Below, in pieces: positions 1 to 11,793 of a stretch of DNA of 11,793 nucleotides. Each line of letters opens with the position of its first letter. Positions within the stretch are counted from its first letter, which is position 1. This stretch comes from Candidatus Hodarchaeota archaeon (GTDB taxonomy: Archaea; Asgardarchaeota; Heimdallarchaeia; Hodarchaeales; Hodarchaeaceae). The translations under genes were made by a program, and so were the position numbers. The stretch spans positions 1-11,793 of the forward strand of contig JAEOTM010000077.1 in assembly GCA_016839815.1 (NCBI GenBank), written 5' to 3'. Under the pieces are notes generated by a model. It did not search any database and was not told the DNA's origin. It saw only the letters and a program-made list of their open reading frames with translations.

Positions 1-74
1 GGCCAATGAGTAATTAAATCTTCTGTTAGCTTATCTACCCAGTGTAACATGATTGGTTTTGGATGGCCACTCAT
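1..74 (-). CDS. lysS: 5' end of probable class I lysyl-tRNA synthetase (partial, runs off the left edge)
   Basis: Not in the ORF track. Minus-strand translation from ATG at 74 (alternative in-frame ATG at 50) gives MSGHPKPIMLHWVDKLTEDLITHW(P). 'M-x-HW-x-D-x-x-x-E-x-x-I' is the typical N-terminus of archaeal class I LysRS. Only about 24 codons are visible. Confidence 0.6.
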   Translation of the reverse strand, partial: MSGHPKPIMLHWVDKLTEDLITHW

Positions 75-347: not shown

Positions 348-1565
348 ATGATGAAAGCATTAGTACTCACTGGTGGTAGTGGAAAGGAAATGCTACCATT
401 ATCCAGGTATTGTCCAAAAACTATGTTGCGGATCCATGGGAAATATGTGATCGAGTATGTTTTAGATGGATTAATTGAAACAGGAGTAGAAGAGTTTATC
501 GTTGTCACTGGCTATCAGGGGGAAAAATTACACGGAGTTATTGAGACTTATCGGTCTCGTGGAGTTAATATTCAGACTGTAAATCAAGGAGATAGAAAAG
601 GAATCGAAGGTGCAATTCTGTCTGCACAGGCTCATTTTGGTAAGGATAAACCTTTCCTCTTAGCTTATGGTGATATTATTGCCCCCTCAATGTTTTATCA
701 TCACCTCCTGAACTCGTATATCAATACTGCTGCGGATGGGGCGATTTCAGTAACCCTTATTGGAAAATCCCAAGAATTTGGAATCGCAAATATCGACGAT
801 CATGGGTTCATTAAGAAAATCTCTCCCGATCCTTCTTCTGCGGAAAATGACACAAATTATATCTTCGCAGGAGCTTCCATCCTTCCGGGGGAATTTTTTG
901 ATATGCTGACTGAAGAGGAAAAACTTACTAAAGCACTTACTCGTCTGTTGAAGGAACAACGACGTATCTGTGCTTCTGTCTGGCAGGACGAATGGATTGA
1001 TGTAGGGTATGGATGGGATTTATTAGCCGCGAATCAGGATATTTTCAAGGGTTTAAATTATGCTCGTATCCATAAATCCGCTAAAATTTCTCCCTCAGCT
1101 CACATTTCTGGATTGGTTCTTATAGAGGAGGGGGTTACGATTGATCACAATGCAGAAATTGTTGGTCCTTGTTTCATTGGAAAAAATGCCTATATTGGTA
1201 CTAACAGTTTGATTCGTAATTATGCATGCATCGGTATGAATTCGAAGATTGGTTATTCGGTTGAAGTGAAGAATTCCGTGATCCAACCGAAGGTGAAAAT
1301 TGGCCGTTTATCGTTTGTCGGTGATAGTGTTATTGGAGAGAATGTACTAATCGGATCTGGAGTAACTACGATGAATGTTTTACGAGATGATGAACAACAA
1401 AAATCATCTCAAGAAATCAAGGGAAGAAAATACCATAAACTTGGAGCTATCATTGGTCCGAACTCGGTTATTGGTTCAAATTCCGTTATCAAGCCCTATG
1501 TTATTATTGATGCGGATCAGGTTATTGCAGATGGAACTGTAATAAAAAAGAAAAATTCAAAATAA
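348..1565 (+). CDS. glmU: Archaeal GlmU-like protein (sugar-phosphate nucleotidyltransferase domain + hexapeptide left-handed beta-helix); catalytic motifs degenerate
   Basis: N-terminal MKALVLTGGSG..PLS...PK, LAYGD and WIDVGYGWDLLAAN. C-terminal hexapeptide repeats (VLIEEGVTIDHNAEIVGPCFIGKNAYIG; VEVKNSVI; GDSVIGENV; KLGAIIG). The symbol denotes family homology only; see findings for the lost catalytic residues. The start could be 348 or 351. Confidence 0.85.
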   Translation: MMKALVLTGGSGKEMLPLSRYCPKTMLRIHGKYVIEYVLDGLIETGVEEFIVVTGYQGEKLHGVIETYRSRGVNIQTVNQGDRKGIEGAILSAQAHFGKDKPFLLAYGDIIAPSMFYHHLLNSYINTAADGAISVTLIGKSQEFGIANIDDHGFIKKISPDPSSAENDTNYIFAGASILPGEFFDMLTEEEKLTKALTRLLKEQRRICASVWQDEWIDVGYGWDLLAANQDIFKGLNYARIHKSAKISPSAHISGLVLIEEGVTIDHNAEIVGPCFIGKNAYIGTNSLIRNYACIGMNSKIGYSVEVKNSVIQPKVKIGRLSFVGDSVIGENVLIGSGVTTMNVLRDDEQQKSSQEIKGRKYHKLGAIIGPNSVIGSNSVIKPYVIIDADQVIADGTVIKKKNSK

Positions 1566-1596: not shown

Positions 1597-2298
1597 TTAA
1601 ACATCTAGACGTTCAGATGGGACATAGGATAAGATTCCACGAATAGCTTTTTCCTTTTTGTTAACACGAAAAACATTGGGTATTCGGTAGATATGCGGGT
1701 CAGTTTCTGGTTTAATGAAGATATCACCACTTAAGAAAAGCATCTTCTCAAAAATGTCTGGAGTGGTTTTCTCGATATGAGCATGTTGAGCATTCCCAAA
1801 TCGTCGTTCATCTCCAAGAATTCCACGATGATGATAGATTTCTGTTGGAGAGATTAACCAGTAATCGATTCTCGAGTAGAGATACACCAATATGAAGTGT
1901 GCAATCATCAATATGTCAAAAAACAAATAGAAATCTGTCGACATATGAATGTCTGGAGCTGTGAGACTAAGCTTCAGTAGGTCACCAACTTGTTCCTGGA
2001 GTAAAACGAATACAAGAACCAAAATGATAAAACCTGCTGCGATTAAAGCTGTTTTTCCAAGTCCAAAGTCAAAAGCAACAATCAGGAAGTTAAAGGCAAA
2101 GACTGCAAAGAAAAATGTACCCATCTGATTCATTAATGCAGTATCGCCCGCGTCCATGAAGAATGCTTGGATTATGAAAATAATTATTCCTACAATCATT
2201 GATGGATAGAAAAATAGTGTTTCAGGATAAGATCGAACGATTAGATACTTTTTTTCCTTATTATCTTTTGTTTTCTTTTTTTCTGTAACCTGTGCCAT
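1597..2298 (-). CDS. Membrane protein with about 4 TM helices and a C-terminal bacterial PH (bPH_2)-like domain
   Basis: Lys-rich N-terminus and four hydrophobic segments, then YWLISPTEIYHHRGIL...IEKTTPDIFEKMLFLSGDIFIK...IPNV. This matches the bPH pattern (Y-x-I-T/S...G-I-L...G-D/T-I-x-I...I-x-N-V). SD-like AAGGAG lies about 9 nt upstream of the ATG. Confidence 0.65.
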   Translation of the reverse strand: MAQVTEKKKTKDNKEKKYLIVRSYPETLFFYPSMIVGIIIFIIQAFFMDAGDTALMNQMGTFFFAVFAFNFLIVAFDFGLGKTALIAAGFIILVLVFVLLQEQVGDLLKLSLTAPDIHMSTDFYLFFDILMIAHFILVYLYSRIDYWLISPTEIYHHRGILGDERRFGNAQHAHIEKTTPDIFEKMLFLSGDIFIKPETDPHIYRIPNVFRVNKKEKAIRGILSYVPSERLDV

Positions 2299-2700: not shown

Positions 2701-2806
2701 AATTGCAGACCTCACTTTGATAGAGCACTTAGGAGGTATATTAAGTCCCAATTTTTCTGTATCCTTAGATACGATTTTAATAATTGATTATCTGCTCGTT
2801 CAGTAT

Positions 2807-4060
2807 ATGGAACAGACTTCAATGACTAACTCAAATTATGACTTATTTGAATCGTTAAACCATCCTTCGCATATTTTTCAAAATGAGGAAGTCTTTGAAC
2901 CATCTTTTATTCCCGAATGTCTTTTACATCGGGAGCAAGAGCTTGCAACTCTCGCTCAGTACTTTAAACCTATTCTCAATACTAACTCTCCCGCTTTGGG
3001 AACTCATGCAGTAATTCAAGGATCAGTTGGACTGGGAAAAACTACCATTGTCAAACAATTTGGAAGTACTCTTCAAGCTTATAGTCGACAAAGGCAAAGA
3101 GAAGATATTGCTCAAATTCTCTTTTTTCATCTCAATTGCCGGAGACAAAGGTCTTGGAATATTCTCTTTACTACTATACTTCGTCAGCTAGTACCCGCAT
3201 TTCCTGTAAGAGGATTCAGTGCTGCTGAACTTCTCACTTATATTAGCTCGGTTATGAAGGAACGGAATCAAAAGCTTTTACTTTGTCTTGATGAAATTGA
3301 TTATTTGATTCCTACAGCGAAAGGCCAGGATATTCTCTATGGGTTGATTCGTATGAACGAGGGAAATACTCTCGATTCAAATTCACCTCTTTCATTAATT
3401 CTCGTTACTCGAAGTCCTTATCTCTATTCCTACCTTGATTCTGCCCTCTACTCGTCTCTTAGTAAACGAATGATAATTTTTCATCCGTACAGTACTGCAC
3501 AGCTTTCTGACATCCTTTTTTCAAGAGCAAAACAAGGTTTAAAAGATTGTACATATACTAATGAAATAATTAAGGAAATTGCTAGTATTGCACATACCTC
3601 TGGAGATGCACGGTATGCTCTTGAACTTTTATGGAGAGCTGGGAAGGTGGCTGAGGGTGAACACTGTAGTGAACTTACGTTTGAACACGTGAGAAAAGCT
3701 CAAGTAAGTTGTTTCCCCATTAAACAAACTTTGATTACTGACCTTCCCCTACATCAGAAAATTGTATTATTTTCGATTGCCAGTGTGTTAAACCGTCAAA
3801 CTAATTCCATGTACACATTAACTGCGGATATTAAGCGAAAATATGAAGCTCTGTGTCAATCTAAAGATATTATCCCTCGAAAACAAACTCAATTCTGGGT
3901 TTATATGCAGGAACTTCATAAGATAGGTCTAATTAAACTAGAAGTGATTAATCGTCATAATAAGGGAAAATCACGCGGGAGAATAGGAAAAGTGGGGATT
4001 TCAGACTTTCCTGTCCTTGAACTTATGCAATTACTCCAGTCAGATCTCTTCGAGAAATAA
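2807..4060 (+). CDS. cdc6: Orc1/Cdc6 family replication initiation protein (AAA+ ATPase + winged helix)
   Basis: IFQNEEVFEPSFIPECLLHREQEL N-terminal motif, Walker A GSVGLGKT, HLNCR, FPVRGFS, Walker B LCLDEID, sensor-2 region GDARYALELL, C-terminal wHTH with a KGKSRGR wing. The ORF track starts at TTG 2717. Family similarity begins after ATG 2807/2822, and a TATA-like TTTTAATA (~2776-2783) sits about 25-30 nt upstream of 2807. Confidence 0.95.
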   Translation: MEQTSMTNSNYDLFESLNHPSHIFQNEEVFEPSFIPECLLHREQELATLAQYFKPILNTNSPALGTHAVIQGSVGLGKTTIVKQFGSTLQAYSRQRQREDIAQILFFHLNCRRQRSWNILFTTILRQLVPAFPVRGFSAAELLTYISSVMKERNQKLLLCLDEIDYLIPTAKGQDILYGLIRMNEGNTLDSNSPLSLILVTRSPYLYSYLDSALYSSLSKRMIIFHPYSTAQLSDILFSRAKQGLKDCTYTNEIIKEIASIAHTSGDARYALELLWRAGKVAEGEHCSELTFEHVRKAQVSCFPIKQTLITDLPLHQKIVLFSIASVLNRQTNSMYTLTADIKRKYEALCQSKDIIPRKQTQFWVYMQELHKIGLIKLEVINRHNKGKSRGRIGKVGISDFPVLELMQLLQSDLFEK

Positions 4061-5507: not shown

Positions 5508-8003
5508 TTACCTTCTCTTCCGAAGGAAGACAGGTAAAGCCATTAAGCTTCCGAGAACGAAAATTGTCTCGAAACCAGGACTGATTTCAACATCTGTAGG
5601 TTCAGTGGTTGTGGTAGGTTCACTGTCATCAGTGGTTGTGTCATCTGAAGGATAGTCAGAAATTGCTACCTCTAGGGCGTATGAAGTGTGTGAACTCATC
5701 CATTCAAATGAACCACTTGGATTCCAATAGTAGTGTTCCTCTGTGTAGACATATCCATCAGTTGTGACGATTTCTAGATCTCCAGTATCGTTATCAACTT
5801 GGGTCATATCAAGTTCAGAGTAAACAGAAGCACCGACATTCGTAGCATTGTTTATCCAGTCTAGATCGAAGCTGAATGAATGAATTGTTAACGAATCACC
5901 TTCATCTTCCATTGGCATATTCATGAGGAATGCAAGGAAATCTGGATCTGTGATAACTGCTGAAAGTTGATCTACATACGCTTCCATTAGGATAACTGCC
6001 CCACCAACTTGATTCCAATCAGGGGTTCGGGCTGGCATGGGAATAATTATCTGAGGATCGACTGGAAGTCTGAAACCTTGTTCTTCTTCAGGAGGTATTG
6101 GATCTTGTGCACCCATTCCAGCATTCATTTCATCGCCACCATTATCTCCACCAAACATAAACATGAAATTGTTTTTGGTGAGATAAGAGGTAAATCCACT
6201 TTCTGGCATAGCTTCAATTTCGAAAAATGCAACGTAGTCAACACCAGGAACGAAGTTTTGACCCACACTGTCATTGATTAGGATATCAGTATAGGTCCAA
6301 TTAACGGGAATATCATACATACCGCTAGTTTCATTCCAATCCCAGCCTTGTTCGATGACTTCGACATAATCAACAAGGCCATTATACACTTCAACAGCTG
6401 AAGATGTGGCAAGGTTTTCCTCAAGTGTTTTAGATTGATCATAATTCATTTCCCAATCTTGTTTCTCAAAGACCTGAGCATTCATTATTCCACGAACCCA
6501 ATCATTAATACGCAAGGTTTGATTGTCTTCGGCTTGCAATGGATGAAATTCTTCAATCCAGTTACCCCATTCATCCCAATAACCCCAGTGGCTTCCATCA
6601 AATCTGCGGAGAAAACTAGTTGTATTTTGATACATTTGAGCATCAAACAGATTGATTGCGAAGTCATGAGTACCCCATTGATCCATACCATCATCAAACG
6701 GATGATAATAGTCATTCAGTGGAGGTAAGGGTTCTTGTGCACCGGAGCCTGCAGGTTCACCACCAAACAGGAATCCTAATCGATCACCTAGGAAACGATT
6801 GAAGTCAAGCATATAACCATCTAAGTGGTAATATAGTCCGTCCATCTCATCAACCGTATAGTTTAAGAGTTGTTCACCATTAAGTTCTTCAACTGCAGCA
6901 ATAATTTCGGTTAACATATCATTTACAAATTGTTCTTCTGTATCATTTACTAAGTCAAGATCATCTAAGGACAAATCTACATTAATTACATATTCACCTG
7001 AATCACCAATACTAATTGGTACGATCGGTTTGGTATTGCTTAGTAGATCAAATACAAAGAAAAATTCTTCCCATTCGTCAATTACACCACTATCATCCAT
7101 ATCTCCAATTGCTTGAACACTAAAGTGTTCCAAGAATCCAGAAACTGAATTCCAGACACCCATAATGGTAATATTACCATGATCGGCTGTGGCATTGAAG
7201 AATTCAACTAGAATTGTCAGCTCAAAGTCAGCTGCTAAATTAGGTGTTGCTGTCACAGAAATATTTTCTGATCCATCATCATCAAAGGGAAATAGCTTAT
7301 CTAGATCGACTTCACTATCCCAATAACTGAAAGCATCATTAACATTTTCTACGAAGAAGATTGCTGGTGAGACAAATGGTAAACCATCATATCCATACCA
7401 GGAGGCCATTTCTGACAAATCTTCAAAGGCTGTGAAGTTTGTTGTAGAACTAACAACTGGGAACGGAGGAGTTCCTGATCCCGCTGGAAGAACAACACTT
7501 GTTGGTAACAAATCAACGGGGACACCTTGATCTGCCAATTCAGGGGGATAATTCACAGATACAGTGATATCTTCACCCAAGGTTAGTACTGCTTGCCAGT
7601 CTAATAATCGACTTGCAGGGTTATATATGGATCGTTGATCGTTAACAATTTTCACAAAAAGCTCTGATCCTTCAAATGTACCATCTATTGCAAATTCTGG
7701 TACAGGACCTGAGTTGGGATCACCACCAAAGAAAAATCCAGCATTGAAGAATTGATCAAGTGGACTCTTTGCACTGGTGACATTGTATCGTAGGTTCGTA
7801 TTTGTGAGATCAGCTGCTGATCCTGTGGTTGGTCCAACTATCCAGTTATTTGTCAAAGAGATGTCAGAGGAAAGGTCTATTAAACCTTCAAAGTCACCCA
7901 TATCTGGGCCTCCGCCATCCTGAGCGGAAACTGGAATAGAAAGACTACCAAGGAGAAGGAAACCGATAGTTACGACTCCTACACAAAAAAGTCTTTTATT
8001 CAT
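5508..8003 (-). CDS. Large acidic secreted cell-surface (S-layer-like) glycoprotein with PGF-CTERM-like sorting signal
   Basis: Sec signal peptide (MNKR-hydrophobic-VSA/Q). Very D/E-rich with few K/R. 14 N-x-S/T sequons counted. Thr/Asp-rich linker DDTTTDDSEPTTTTEPT, then SPGF + TM helix + RKRR. SD AGGTGA lies 7 nt upstream of the ATG. Confidence 0.85.
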   Translation of the reverse strand: MNKRLFCVGVVTIGFLLLGSLSIPVSAQDGGGPDMGDFEGLIDLSSDISLTNNWIVGPTTGSAADLTNTNLRYNVTSAKSPLDQFFNAGFFFGGDPNSGPVPEFAIDGTFEGSELFVKIVNDQRSIYNPASRLLDWQAVLTLGEDITVSVNYPPELADQGVPVDLLPTSVVLPAGSGTPPFPVVSSTTNFTAFEDLSEMASWYGYDGLPFVSPAIFFVENVNDAFSYWDSEVDLDKLFPFDDDGSENISVTATPNLAADFELTILVEFFNATADHGNITIMGVWNSVSGFLEHFSVQAIGDMDDSGVIDEWEEFFFVFDLLSNTKPIVPISIGDSGEYVINVDLSLDDLDLVNDTEEQFVNDMLTEIIAAVEELNGEQLLNYTVDEMDGLYYHLDGYMLDFNRFLGDRLGFLFGGEPAGSGAQEPLPPLNDYYHPFDDGMDQWGTHDFAINLFDAQMYQNTTSFLRRFDGSHWGYWDEWGNWIEEFHPLQAEDNQTLRINDWVRGIMNAQVFEKQDWEMNYDQSKTLEENLATSSAVEVYNGLVDYVEVIEQGWDWNETSGMYDIPVNWTYTDILINDSVGQNFVPGVDYVAFFEIEAMPESGFTSYLTKNNFMFMFGGDNGGDEMNAGMGAQDPIPPEEEQGFRLPVDPQIIIPMPARTPDWNQVGGAVILMEAYVDQLSAVITDPDFLAFLMNMPMEDEGDSLTIHSFSFDLDWINNATNVGASVYSELDMTQVDNDTGDLEIVTTDGYVYTEEHYYWNPSGSFEWMSSHTSYALEVAISDYPSDDTTTDDSEPTTTTEPTDVEISPGFETIFVLGSLMALPVFLRKRR

Positions 8004-8369: not shown

Positions 8370-10775
8370 TTGACTGTTCGAGTGGATTTTGAAAAAAAAG
8401 AGATATCTGTCAGTATTAGAGATCTTGCCTTTCTAAATGCCCCTAGGTCTGGTATGTCTCATGTTTATTTCAAAAATGCCGAGAAAGGGAGAGAAGTTCA
8501 TCAACACATTCAAGATGAAAAACAAGCTATTGATCCGAGCTACAGAACTGAATATTTCTTAAAATATGAATTTAAATTCAAAGAATGGACAGTCTTGCTA
8601 CGAGGACGAGTTGATCTATTCGCAGAAACACCAGATAGTATTCAAATTGAAGAGATAAAGTCGATTTATGTAAAGAATTTTGATGGTTCTTCTCATAATC
8701 CGTTTGTGGATCCTTTTACAAAACAACTTCAATGCTATGCATGGATTTATTCTCAATTAGAATCACCTAAATTACCATTAACTCTTGTTTTGATCCTTTA
8801 CAACCGCTTTGACGATTCCAAATATAATTTATCTGTTCCTAATATTGATATGAAAGCATTTATTGAGAAACAAATTGATTTTTTAATAACAGAGGAAACT
8901 GTCCGTTACTCTCAACATCAAAGGCAAATTCAAACACTTAAAAATCTCCACTTTCCTTTTCCATACCGTGATTATCAAGAATCTATAGTTAACTCAATTA
9001 ACCAAATATTAGACGATAAAATCAACATGATTATTGAAGCTCCTAGTGGTTTGGGTAAAACAGTCGTATCGTTATTCCCTCTTCTTTCACGTTCTATTCA
9101 GGAGAACCGTCCGTTATTTTTTCTTACAGCTAAAGCTACACAACGCCGTATCGTCGAAGAAACCCTCAGTTTGTTCCATGATCAAGGAGTTGATTTTTTA
9201 GCTGTAATTCTCAAGGCAAAAGAAAAAATGTGTACCAATTCCATTTATTTCTGTCATGAAGAATACTGTCCTTATCTAAAAAATTACATTCAGAAATATC
9301 CTGAGGACCAGCTCCAAGTACTTATTCAAAAGCGTGGAATTATAACACCAGAAATAATTGAGGACTTGGCATCAACTTCTAGGGCGTTTTGTCCTTTCGA
9401 GCTTATTCTTGATCTTTCTTTGGCTTCAAATGTTATTGTTAGTGACTATAATTACGTTTTTCACCCCCGTGTGACCTTACAACGATTTTTTGGTGTCCAG
9501 ATTCCAAAATCTCAGAAATATTACTTAATTATCGATGAAGCACATAATTTAGTCAATCGGAGTTTAGATTATTACTCACATACTCTAAACCAACAAGATG
9601 TTTTTCAATTCAAGAAAGATTTAAAACTACTAGAACGTAAATACAGTGGAATTCCTACTCCTAATTTCACCCCTCCGATATTAGAAAGAGTTTTTCGAAT
9701 TTTACGGACAAATTACGGAATCGCTCCTTCTATGCATCTCTTAGAATCTCTAGATGTTCGATCATTTGAAACGATTCTTCTCCGCTTAGAAGAGCATATT
9801 CCTCAGTATCTTCGTTATTTGTTTGAGCACGACCTTCACTGGCCCGAAGATCCTGTCCTTTGGTTCTATTATCATTTACGTGATTTTACTGAGACTGCAA
9901 AACTCGCTCAAACAGCTGAAGAGTTTTCGATTATATATAATTCCCAAGAGGGGGAAATACAGCTTTTATGTAAAGATGCTTCTCCATTTCTTAACAGTCG
10001 GCTCAATCAGTTTAAATCAGCGATTGCTATATCGGCAACCATTACTCCGTTTCCATTTTATAGAGATCTTCTAGGTTTTCCTATAGAAAAAACGGTATAT
10101 AAACAATATCCCTCTCCTTTTCCTAGTGAAAATCGGGTAATCTTGGTTTCACCTGAAATTGATACTCGATATAAACATCGTAATGAGTATTATAAAGAAA
10201 TAGCCCAATTAATCATCAAAGCAGTCCAGAAGAAACCAGGTAAGTATTTTGCATTCTTTCCATCTTTTAAATTTGCTTCAGATGTACTATTCCAGATATC
10301 ACCACCAAGTAAACTGACGATAATAAAACAACTAGGTCCAATGCATGATGAGGAAAGAAAAAGATTTATTCAACAGTTAGAATCTGAATCTTTTGTACTG
10401 GCGATTGCTGTAACCGCTGGAATTTTTGCAGAGGGTTTAGATTTTCCTGGTATGTTAAATGGTGTATTTGTAGTTAGCCCAAGCTTACCTACATTAACTT
10501 TCGAAAGAGAAGTGATTCGTCAATATTATGAAGAAAGGTACAGCAATGGTTTTGCCTATGCATATAAATTTCCAGGATTAACTCGTACATTTCAAGCTGC
10601 TGGTCGGTTAATAAGAACTGTTGAAGATAAAGGGGTAATAGTCTTTATAGGCCAACGGTTTGCCTCTCCGGGATATGCAGATTACTTTCCGTCTTATTAC
10701 TATGAACATTCTCCACGGGAATTAATTTCCAGAGATATAATAAAGGATATTGAGAAGTTCTGGGATAAACACTAG
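8370..10775 (+). CDS. XPD/Rad3/DinG-family FeS 5'-3' DNA helicase with N-terminal PD-(D/E)xK (RecB/Cas4-like) nuclease domain
   Basis: Nuclease motifs: GREVH, LRGRVD, IEEIKS, QLQCY. Helicase motifs: Q motif PYRDYQ, I EAPSGLGKT, FeS cysteines (MCTNSIYFCHEEYCPY...FCPF), II IIDEAHN, III SAT, IV FFPSF, V GIFAEGLDF, VI QAAGRLIR. TTG start. Confidence 0.92.
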   Translation: MTVRVDFEKKEISVSIRDLAFLNAPRSGMSHVYFKNAEKGREVHQHIQDEKQAIDPSYRTEYFLKYEFKFKEWTVLLRGRVDLFAETPDSIQIEEIKSIYVKNFDGSSHNPFVDPFTKQLQCYAWIYSQLESPKLPLTLVLILYNRFDDSKYNLSVPNIDMKAFIEKQIDFLITEETVRYSQHQRQIQTLKNLHFPFPYRDYQESIVNSINQILDDKINMIIEAPSGLGKTVVSLFPLLSRSIQENRPLFFLTAKATQRRIVEETLSLFHDQGVDFLAVILKAKEKMCTNSIYFCHEEYCPYLKNYIQKYPEDQLQVLIQKRGIITPEIIEDLASTSRAFCPFELILDLSLASNVIVSDYNYVFHPRVTLQRFFGVQIPKSQKYYLIIDEAHNLVNRSLDYYSHTLNQQDVFQFKKDLKLLERKYSGIPTPNFTPPILERVFRILRTNYGIAPSMHLLESLDVRSFETILLRLEEHIPQYLRYLFEHDLHWPEDPVLWFYYHLRDFTETAKLAQTAEEFSIIYNSQEGEIQLLCKDASPFLNSRLNQFKSAIAISATITPFPFYRDLLGFPIEKTVYKQYPSPFPSENRVILVSPEIDTRYKHRNEYYKEIAQLIIKAVQKKPGKYFAFFPSFKFASDVLFQISPPSKLTIIKQLGPMHDEERKRFIQQLESESFVLAIAVTAGIFAEGLDFPGMLNGVFVVSPSLPTLTFEREVIRQYYEERYSNGFAYAYKFPGLTRTFQAAGRLIRTVEDKGVIVFIGQRFASPGYADYFPSYYYEHSPRELISRDIIKDIEKFWDKH

Positions 10776-11520: not shown

Positions 11521-11793
11521 ATGGGTGTAAAATCGATGTTATCAGAAGAAGAGAAGCAATATTTTTCTCGACAAATTGTTCTTCCAAATTTTGGTGAAAA
11601 GGGACAAGAGAAATTAAAACAAGTAAGAATTTTAGTGGTGGGGGTCGGGGGTTTAGGAACATTTTCCACTCTGCTTTTAGCTGAAATGGGAGTTGGATAT
11701 CTTCGCATTGTTGATCGTGATCTTATTGAAAAAACGAATTTACATCGAACTCCTCTCTATACTGAAGACGATTTGGACCAAGCAAAAGTAGAA
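11521..11793 (+). CDS. ThiF/MoeB/HesA (E1-like) adenylyltransferase, 5' part (runs off the right edge)
   Basis: Not in the ORF track. Translation: MGVKSMLSEEEKQYFSRQIVLPNFGEKGQEKLKQVRILVVGVGGLGTFSTLLLAEMGVGYLRIVDRDLIEKTNLHRTPLYTEDDLDQAKVE. It shows the SRQ, GxGGLG, DxDxIExxNLHR and K-V-E motifs. The start is 11521 or 11536. Confidence 0.93.
   Translation, partial: MGVKSMLSEEEKQYFSRQIVLPNFGEKGQEKLKQVRILVVGVGGLGTFSTLLLAEMGVGYLRIVDRDLIEKTNLHRTPLYTEDDLDQAKVE

Follow-up and report, generated by a model that had tools for sequence, protein, structure and literature searches.

A strongly conserved GlmU paralogue with both active sites altered in a Hodarchaeales archaeon: a candidate regulatory subunit of the hexosamine pathway

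The contig JAEOTM010000077.1 of a Candidatus Hodarchaeota archaeon (assembly GCA_016839815.1) was analysed over its whole length of 11,793 nucleotides, referred to here as the window. At 348-1565 on the forward strand it carries an intact open reading frame (ORF) of 405 aa, which encodes a degenerate paralogue (hereafter GlmU*) of GlmU, the producer of the sugar donor UDP-N-acetylglucosamine (UDP-GlcNAc); translation possibly starts at the second ATG, at 351, and the orthologues begin at this second Met. GlmU* belongs to a large, strongly conserved and uncharacterised family of doubly degenerate GlmU paralogues in Asgard archaea and Thermoproteota, usually tied to glmS. No published work on such a family was found in the literature covered, which did not include the primary papers on ST0452 of Sulfolobus tokodaii.

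The protein consists of a nucleotidyltransferase (GT-A-like) domain (348-1052 (+), residues ~1-235, with the PF00483 match at residues 3-232), followed by a left-handed beta-helix (LbH) domain (1053-1562 (+), residues ~236-405), delimited by Hexapep, LbH_EIF2B and Hexapep_GlmU matches and by secondary structure. Its best NCBIfam model is TIGR03992 (Arch_glmU), which matches from end to end with 269.7 bits, below the cut-off of 292.1, and databases name the protein sugar-phosphate nucleotidyltransferase or GlmU. The closest solved relative is ST0452 (HMMER, 2ggo/5z09, E 3.6e-41, ~30% identity), and GlmU* has the compact two-domain layout and the length of the archaeal GlmU family that ST0452 represents (TIGR03992; PDB 2ggo, 5z09, 5z0a). 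The AlphaFold2 model, built from an input alignment of 102 sequences, has a pLDDT of 94.7 and a pTM of 0.92, and the Foldseek ranking for this model places ST0452 first (TM 0.84-0.86), followed by GMPPB-type proteins (0.72-0.80) and GMPPA (0.69).

Residue equivalences were taken from the HMMER alignment to ST0452, with high posterior in all motif regions, and from a separate MAFFT comparison of 62 sequences, comprising 29 clade members (41-91% identity) and 33 canonical archaeal GlmUs; the two alignments agree on the motif equivalences. In the nucleotidyltransferase domain, GSGKEM of GlmU* aligns with GSGERL of ST0452, so that Glu14 (387-389 (+)) stands at the catalytic Arg of G-x-G-x-R (ST0452 Arg13, E. 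coli GlmU Arg18), a column with Glu in 24 of the 29 clade members and Arg in 33/33 canonical GlmUs. Similarly, KGIEGA aligns with KGTGAA, where G85-I86-E87 (600-608 (+)), part of GIEGA, stands for the canonical G-T-[AG] (GTAHA/GTGDA), the Thr of which is invariant in the canonical set and is replaced by Ile or Val throughout the clade (29/29). ISPDP aligns with IIEKP, placing S159-P160-D161-P162 (822-833 (+)) at the sugar-phosphate motif [VI]-E-K-P; E156 and K157 are invariant in the canonical proteins, and in the clade position 160 is usually Pro and position 161 varies (E, D, H, K). Additionally, IFAG aligns with INAG, the Asn being mostly Phe in the clade, and the canonical SxRGExELTD loop is deleted in the GlmU* clade (MAFFT, 29 vs 33).

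The acetyltransferase site is altered as well. In the LbH domain, RLSFVGDSVIGENVLIG of GlmU* aligns with HLSYVGDSVIAEDVNFG of ST0452, and R320-L-S-F323...L334 (1305-1349 (+)) takes the place of the acetyltransferase His, Tyr and Asn (H363, Y366 and N377 of E. coli GlmU), with His replaced by Arg320, Tyr by Phe323 and Asn by Leu334. Arg320 is found in 29/29 clade members and Phe323 in 25/29, with the Asn column variable, while the canonical proteins have H, Y and N in 33/33. All the substitutions that a sequence-only reading of this DNA had listed at the two active sites hold in both the HMMER and the MAFFT alignments.

Much of the remainder of both pockets has been kept. The nucleotidyltransferase domain retains G10, G12, P17, K24, Q80, G85, D109, G145, G175, W216 and D218, and the LbH domain retains R290, E306, K308, N343 and K364, the equivalents of the contacts of GlmU with glucosamine 1-phosphate (GlcN-1-P) and coenzyme A (CoA), as well as G366. 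Among the 29 clade members there is little or no variation at K24, Q80, D109, D218, R290, E306, N343 and K364. The binding residues K24, Q80, D109, D218, R290, E306, K308, N343 and K364 are thus held in common with the ST0452 family, from which GlmU* differs in the absence of the signature Arg, the GT Thr, EKP, the NAG Asn, the SxRGExELTD loop and the acetyltransferase His, Tyr and Asn. The motifs PK, YGD and WIDVG..WDLL.AN and the hexapeptide register are present and conserved, in agreement with the intact scaffold motifs and full ORF described before. By these alignments, GlmU* has kept its scaffold, its ligands for base and metal and its contacts with sugar phosphate and CoA. What it has lost are the residues for holding the triphosphate and sugar phosphate and those for acetyl-transfer chemistry.

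Loss of key catalytic residues at both sites is also what a decaying gene would display, that is, a recent pseudogene with its frame still open. However, none of the genomes examined has a disrupted ORF, and ~75 orthologues (41-91% identity), labelled Hodarchaeales, Kariarchaeaceae or Heimdallarchaeota where sources name them, carry the same motifs. The ratio of nonsynonymous to synonymous substitution rates (dN/dS, or omega) is ~0.04 or less, as obtained with the four closest congeners (88-90% aa identity), for which dN is 0.054-0.068 against a saturated dS of >=1.9, and the fold prediction is very confident. GlmU* is under strong purifying selection and, because so many orthologues share the substitutions, these are not due to chance or decay; the pseudogene explanation, refuted by the conservation and the dN/dS, has a negligible probability. 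The earlier view that selection has acted on the fold was borne out by the shared substitutions and the low omega, and the conservation of the substitutions across orthologues, which had been proposed as a check, was found.

GlmU* is not alone in having the beta-helix His replaced by Arg or Ser: of the 144 closest cluster representatives at 50% identity, 42 have Arg, 20 Ser and 73 His at this position, and 22 have Glu or Asp at the signature-Arg column. In a FastTree phylogeny of these representatives, GlmU* is distant from the canonical clade, characterised by GTRL / GTAHA / VEKP / HLSY / N, and belongs to a clade of 39 rows (support 99) in which the catalytic motifs vary. An IQ-TREE analysis of 64 prokaryotic sequences (LG+C20 PMSF, quick search) recovers a Hodarchaeales-type clade of 8 rows (support 99) inside a 15-row clade (support 91) that includes LC_3-type proteins. 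This 15-row clade is sister (99 SH-aLRT) to a 12-row Thermoproteota clade with Desulfurococcales and Ignisphaera proteins, and the proteins of a second Heimdallarchaeial lineage, in which the Arg column holds Glu or Asp (GREL, GxDL), group in a clade of their own (support 98). GIEGA is conserved through the whole 27-row clade, including members that retain Arg14 and EKP. On the FastTree tree the beta-helix His was lost few times (4 changes), and the signature Arg gave way to an acidic residue in 16 changes confined to lineages without the His (22/22). Furthermore, the Lys of EKP (161) is lost in 18 of the 22 Glu/Asp proteins, compared with 5 of the 90 that keep Arg. The restriction of Arg loss to these lineages, together with the loss of Lys161, looks like relaxed catalysis after a first lesion, and the likely order of losses is an acetyltransferase lesion first and repeated erosion of the nucleotidyltransferase site afterwards.

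The relatives of GlmU* are frequently neighbours of glmS. In the checked members of the sister Thermoproteota clade (P0267, P0291, P0126, P0134, P0073) the gene lies 10-15 bp 3' of glmS, and in the second Heimdallarchaeial lineage, where position 14 is Glu or Asp, the gene adjoins glmS in P0125 and, by tblastn, in the genomes G007, G010 and G004, and is divergent from glmS in G016. GIEGA, an LbH without the His and frequent loss of the Arg are common to GlmU* and these glmS-linked degenerate proteins of Thermoproteota and other Heimdallarchaeia; the difference lies in the neighbourhood, since GlmU* and its Heimdallarchaeial orthologues are divergent from a class I lysyl-tRNA synthetase (LysRS) instead of following glmS. 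The glmS linkage of the relatives is taken to place the family in hexosamine metabolism, and the LysRS pairing is regarded as lineage-specific inherited synteny.

A canonical GlmU accompanies the paralogue in the genus. All 14 of the other sampled genomes of the genus contain both a canonical Arch_glmU (445-466 bits) and a GlmU* paralogue (250-290 bits). The canonical gene of the congener genome G020, for example, lies at L029:3001-4272. A canonical congener protein scores 458.7 bits with the family model and has the signature AGKATRL; EKP and HLSY are invariant in the canonical alignment that includes this protein. In the congeners, then, a true member of the ST0452 family coexists with the degenerate one.

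Here it is proposed, with somewhat more confidence than doubt, that GlmU* is a catalytically disabled ST0452-type GlmU paralogue that acts as a ligand-binding sensor, regulatory or scaffold subunit of the hexosamine (UDP-GlcNAc) pathway. The compact nucleotidyltransferase and beta-helix fold is retained, and presumably the trimeric assembly of the beta-helix too. In the nucleotidyltransferase pocket the base, ribose and metal ligands (K24, Q80, G85, D109, D218) are still in place, and the positions for the triphosphate and sugar phosphate have become mostly acidic or neutral (Arg to Glu14, Thr-Gly to Ile-Glu87, Glu-Lys to Pro-Asp161), with the SxRGE loop deleted. In the beta-helix pocket the contacts to sugar phosphate and CoA (R290, E306, K308, N343, K364) are likewise kept, with the chemistry residues replaced. 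The equivalent Arg is required for catalysis in E. coli GlmU (R18) and ST0452 (R13), and GalF and the plant ADP-glucose pyrophosphorylase (AGPase) large subunit owe their inactivity to Arg or Lys changes; by analogy with these characterised relatives, GlmU* without its signature Arg should be unable, or hardly able, to transfer nucleotidyl groups, and the changes of His to Arg, Tyr to Phe and Asn to Leu should abolish acetyl transfer. Judged by its sequence, GlmU* has thus probably lost both activities. Because the binding residues are kept in both pockets and Arg320 is invariant, the pockets are probably still used, and GlmU* may bind a uridine nucleotide or UDP-sugar, and/or an amino-sugar phosphate or CoA, without turnover. 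Its partner could be the canonical GlmU, through mixed beta-helix trimers, or GlmS; a predicted complex of residues 1-390 of GlmU* (P0001) with the GlmS of its own genome had a score of 0.00, which, without controls, is evidence neither way.

Comparable proteins are GMPPA (with GMPPB), plant KONJAC/VTC1, GalF (with GalU) and the large subunit of plant AGPase. As in this class, GlmU* is a paralogue of an active enzyme in the congener genomes, has the same fold (with the LbH in GMPPA and AGPase), changed catalytic residues in an otherwise kept pocket, and purifying selection. It differs in deriving from archaeal GlmU, so it is not a member by descent, and in having two degenerate sites and not one; heteromer formation and allosteric binding, for their part, are conjectural for GlmU*. 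Regulatory pseudo-nucleotidyltransferase, on this comparison of sequences and folds, is probably the functional class of GlmU* and not its clade. The suggestion of a pseudoenzyme with a GMPPA-like pattern thus stands as regards the lost catalytic residues, the kept fold and the coexisting canonical GlmU, and is unsupported as regards an affinity to eIF2B, which is treated below.

Several observations weigh against a non-catalytic subunit. GlmU* adjoins no hexosamine gene in the window, and its coexistence with a canonical GlmU is seen in congeners only. No canonical or other full-length GlmU was found in its own assembly (89.5% complete, 7.8% contamination, 206 contigs), which holds glmS, three phosphohexomutase homologues and five further nucleotidyltransferases, all with a normal G-x-G-x-R. 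The canonical glmU for which a search had been suggested was therefore recovered in every sampled congener but not in the genome of the window itself; since all 14 congeners have it, the missing gene is most simply explained as an assembly gap, which is probably what it is. A search for the eukaryote-type UDP-GlcNAc pyrophosphorylase (PF01704) gave no match in the own genome and equally none in the control genomes, and is uninformative. Additionally, no canonical GlmU was found in the Thermoproteota genome G041 and its order, so relatives of GlmU* can be the sole full-length GlmU-like protein in a genome: in G041 the only full-length GlmU-like gene encodes the glmS-linked Glu14 protein. Some beta-helix N-acetyltransferases (e.g., QdtC) also work without the general-base His. 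Finally, the clade shows no variation in the metal ligands D109 and D218, in K24 and Q80 or in the glycine-rich loop, and Glu/Asp is the commonest replacement at the Arg column, recurring in the 16 changes counted above in a way that looks selected and not random.

The last points agree with an active enzyme, namely that GlmU* still works as a sugar-1-phosphate nucleotidylyltransferase and/or acyltransferase whose site has been remodelled and whose substrate has changed. The new substrate could be a cationic amino-sugar phosphate recognised by E14, E87 and D161, and a basic residue such as K/R20 in a flexible loop, or a second metal, would replace the lost Arg. Nearly all Heimdallarchaeial members have Lys or Arg at position 20, GIEGA is kept even in the rows that have Arg14 and EKP, and the relatives are encoded in glmS operons, as a pathway enzyme would be, with no canonical GlmU detected in G041 and its order. 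However, the replaced residues are the phosphate-binding and catalytic set of every characterised member and are invariant in the 33/33 canonical GlmUs. The residue preceding Glu14 is unconserved (K, T, R, N, I, E) and hence does not compensate for the lost Arg; Lys13 was considered as a substitute and rejected on this ground. Similarly, the EKP equivalent differs by subclade (SPDP, LPETP, IEHP, IQRP, FEQP), as expected if the site no longer binds sugar phosphate, and a canonical GlmU is available in 14/14 sampled congeners. A remodelled enzyme is thus tentatively retained as the less probable explanation, and a disabled, ligand-binding GlmU paralogue is preferred.

Other GlmU-like proteins have one of the two sites altered. 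In addition to the Glu14 protein and some short nucleotidyltransferases, G041 encodes a 412-aa protein (L056:228-1466, G041:C70), the N-terminal domain of which is unrecognisable and the beta-helix of which still has His/Tyr/Asn (RHQSYIGDS…VNIG). The canonical GlmU locus of another Heimdallarchaeial family (L058:701-1960, G012:C11), next to a phosphoglucosamine-mutase-like gene, encodes a protein with a degenerate nucleotidyltransferase signature (FVSSAKKQTLTPL, no G-x-G-x-R) and an intact acetyltransferase site (AHLSYVGDS…NFGAG). Judging from these motifs, each of the two modules of GlmU seems to lose or keep its activity separately in the paralogues.

The LysRS gene that adjoins GlmU* is cut by the contig end, leaving its first 24 codons at 3-74 (-), divergent from GlmU*; the N-terminus HW[VI]DKLT..L...W matches the LysRS (PF01921) adjoining the orthologues at two other loci (L015 and L016). 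The divergent pairing is found in the window, two closed Heimdallarchaeota genomes, G040, LC_3 and P0123. The intergenic region between the two genes (75-347) contains no Rfam family, nor does the rest of the window, and promoter and terminator scans around GlmU* gave matches at chance level.

This pairing with a translation gene, conserved from Hodarchaeales to Heimdallarchaeota LC_3, is among the observations in favour of GlmU* being an archaeal forerunner or analogue of eIF2B gamma/epsilon, which would act on aIF2 or, via the LysRS pairing, on another translation step. The nucleotidyltransferase and LbH layout is that of eIF2B gamma/epsilon, both sites are degenerate, and the host is in the Asgard lineage closest to eukaryotes. 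Furthermore, aIF2-gamma and aIF5B lie within <5 kb in one genome and an IF-2B family gene within <6 kb in another, and the clade profile detects yeast eIF2B epsilon with 63.6 bits. However, the same profile gives 236.6 bits to ST0452, 120-131 to GMPPB-type proteins and ~95 to bacterial GlmU, and GlmU* is nested in the archaeal GlmU-like radiation, next to the glmS-linked Thermoproteota proteins. No eIF2B chain is among the top 50 Foldseek matches, and the LbH_EIF2B model (cut-off 54) scores GlmU* at 52.5 and a canonical Heimdallarchaeial GlmU at 52.2. GlmU* also ends after the beta-helix at 405 aa, without a W2/HEAT domain; PF02020 (W2) had no match in the genome, but the controls had none either, which makes this weak evidence of a genome-wide absence. 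The proximity of aIF2-gamma and IF-2B is not conserved, the three IF-2B genes of the own genome are on other contigs, and the basal clade members P0066 and P0122 have neither the LysRS nor the membrane-protein neighbour described below. Taken as a functional clue, the LysRS/aIF2-gamma/IF-2B neighbourhood was rejected, as conservation is limited to the LysRS pairing and to Heimdallarchaeia, with the basal members differing.

The nucleotidyltransferase and LbH core is thus alike in GlmU* and eIF2B gamma/epsilon, but it is common to all GlmU, GMPP and AGPase-type proteins; the sequence and fold of GlmU* have no affinity to eIF2B beyond that of canonical GlmU, and no link to aIF2 or IF-2B genes is conserved. 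The eIF2B gamma/epsilon connection offered by the sequence-only reading found no support beyond the two-domain layout in the tree of prokaryotic proteins, the fold, the Pfam matches or W2. A specific tie of GlmU* to eIF2B is not supported, the family provides no direct evidence on the origin of eIF2B, and a forerunner or analogue of these subunits is very improbable. In archaea, eIF2B gamma/epsilon are held to be missing (PMC7531240).

Equally improbable is a related scenario, in which the LysRS-linked Heimdallarchaeial clade left hexosamine metabolism and represents a translation-associated pseudoenzyme from the archaeal pool recruited for eIF2B gamma/epsilon; if it were true, this clade would be the first archaeal counterpart of the 'missing' scaffold of the eIF2B catalytic subcomplex. 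A search for longer homologues with the clade profile found only fusions of ~835 aa of a nucleotidyltransferase, an LbH and a phosphohexomutase, and no eukaryotic protein. These fusions (P0306-P0343; G044-G052) are common in metagenomes and also in small Thermoproteota genomes without canonical GlmU.

Downstream of GlmU* and convergent with it lies the gene of a 233-aa multi-pass membrane protein (1597-2298 (-)), a conserved syntenic neighbour without a Pfam family. A membrane protein of 233-241 aa is found in this convergent position in Hodarchaeales-type genomes, and its C-terminal soluble part is very highly conserved (…YWLISPTEIYHHRGILGDE[KR]RFGNAQHAHIEKTTPDIFEKMLFLSGD…). It is followed in the window by an Orc1/Cdc6 homologue (2717-4060 (+)), whose position near GlmU* is kept in related genomes; these, and not the window, have RadA between Orc1/Cdc6 and the membrane protein. 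The remaining genes noted include one for an 831-aa acidic secreted protein (5508-8003 (-)) with an N-terminal signal-like segment and no Pfam family, the C-terminal PGF…hydrophobic…RKRR tail of which resembles a PGF-CTERM archaeosortase signal. Also present are an XPD/Rad3-type helicase (8370-10775 (+); DEAD_2, HBB, Helicase_C_2), with ~190 extra N-terminal residues matching no family, and the start of a ThiF/E1-like protein (11521-11793 (+)).

As GlmU* probably performs neither GlmU reaction, it should not be counted as GlmU in Asgard pathway reconstructions, such as those of N-glycosylation and UDP-GlcNAc supply. The family would also show that prokaryotes repeatedly converted nucleotidyltransferase and LbH enzymes into non-catalytic subunits, as happened in eukaryotes for GMPPA and eIF2B gamma/epsilon. 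To our knowledge, no control of hexosamine flux by such proteins has been described in archaea; if GlmU* and its relatives are sensors or regulatory subunits, they would represent a new mode of this control.

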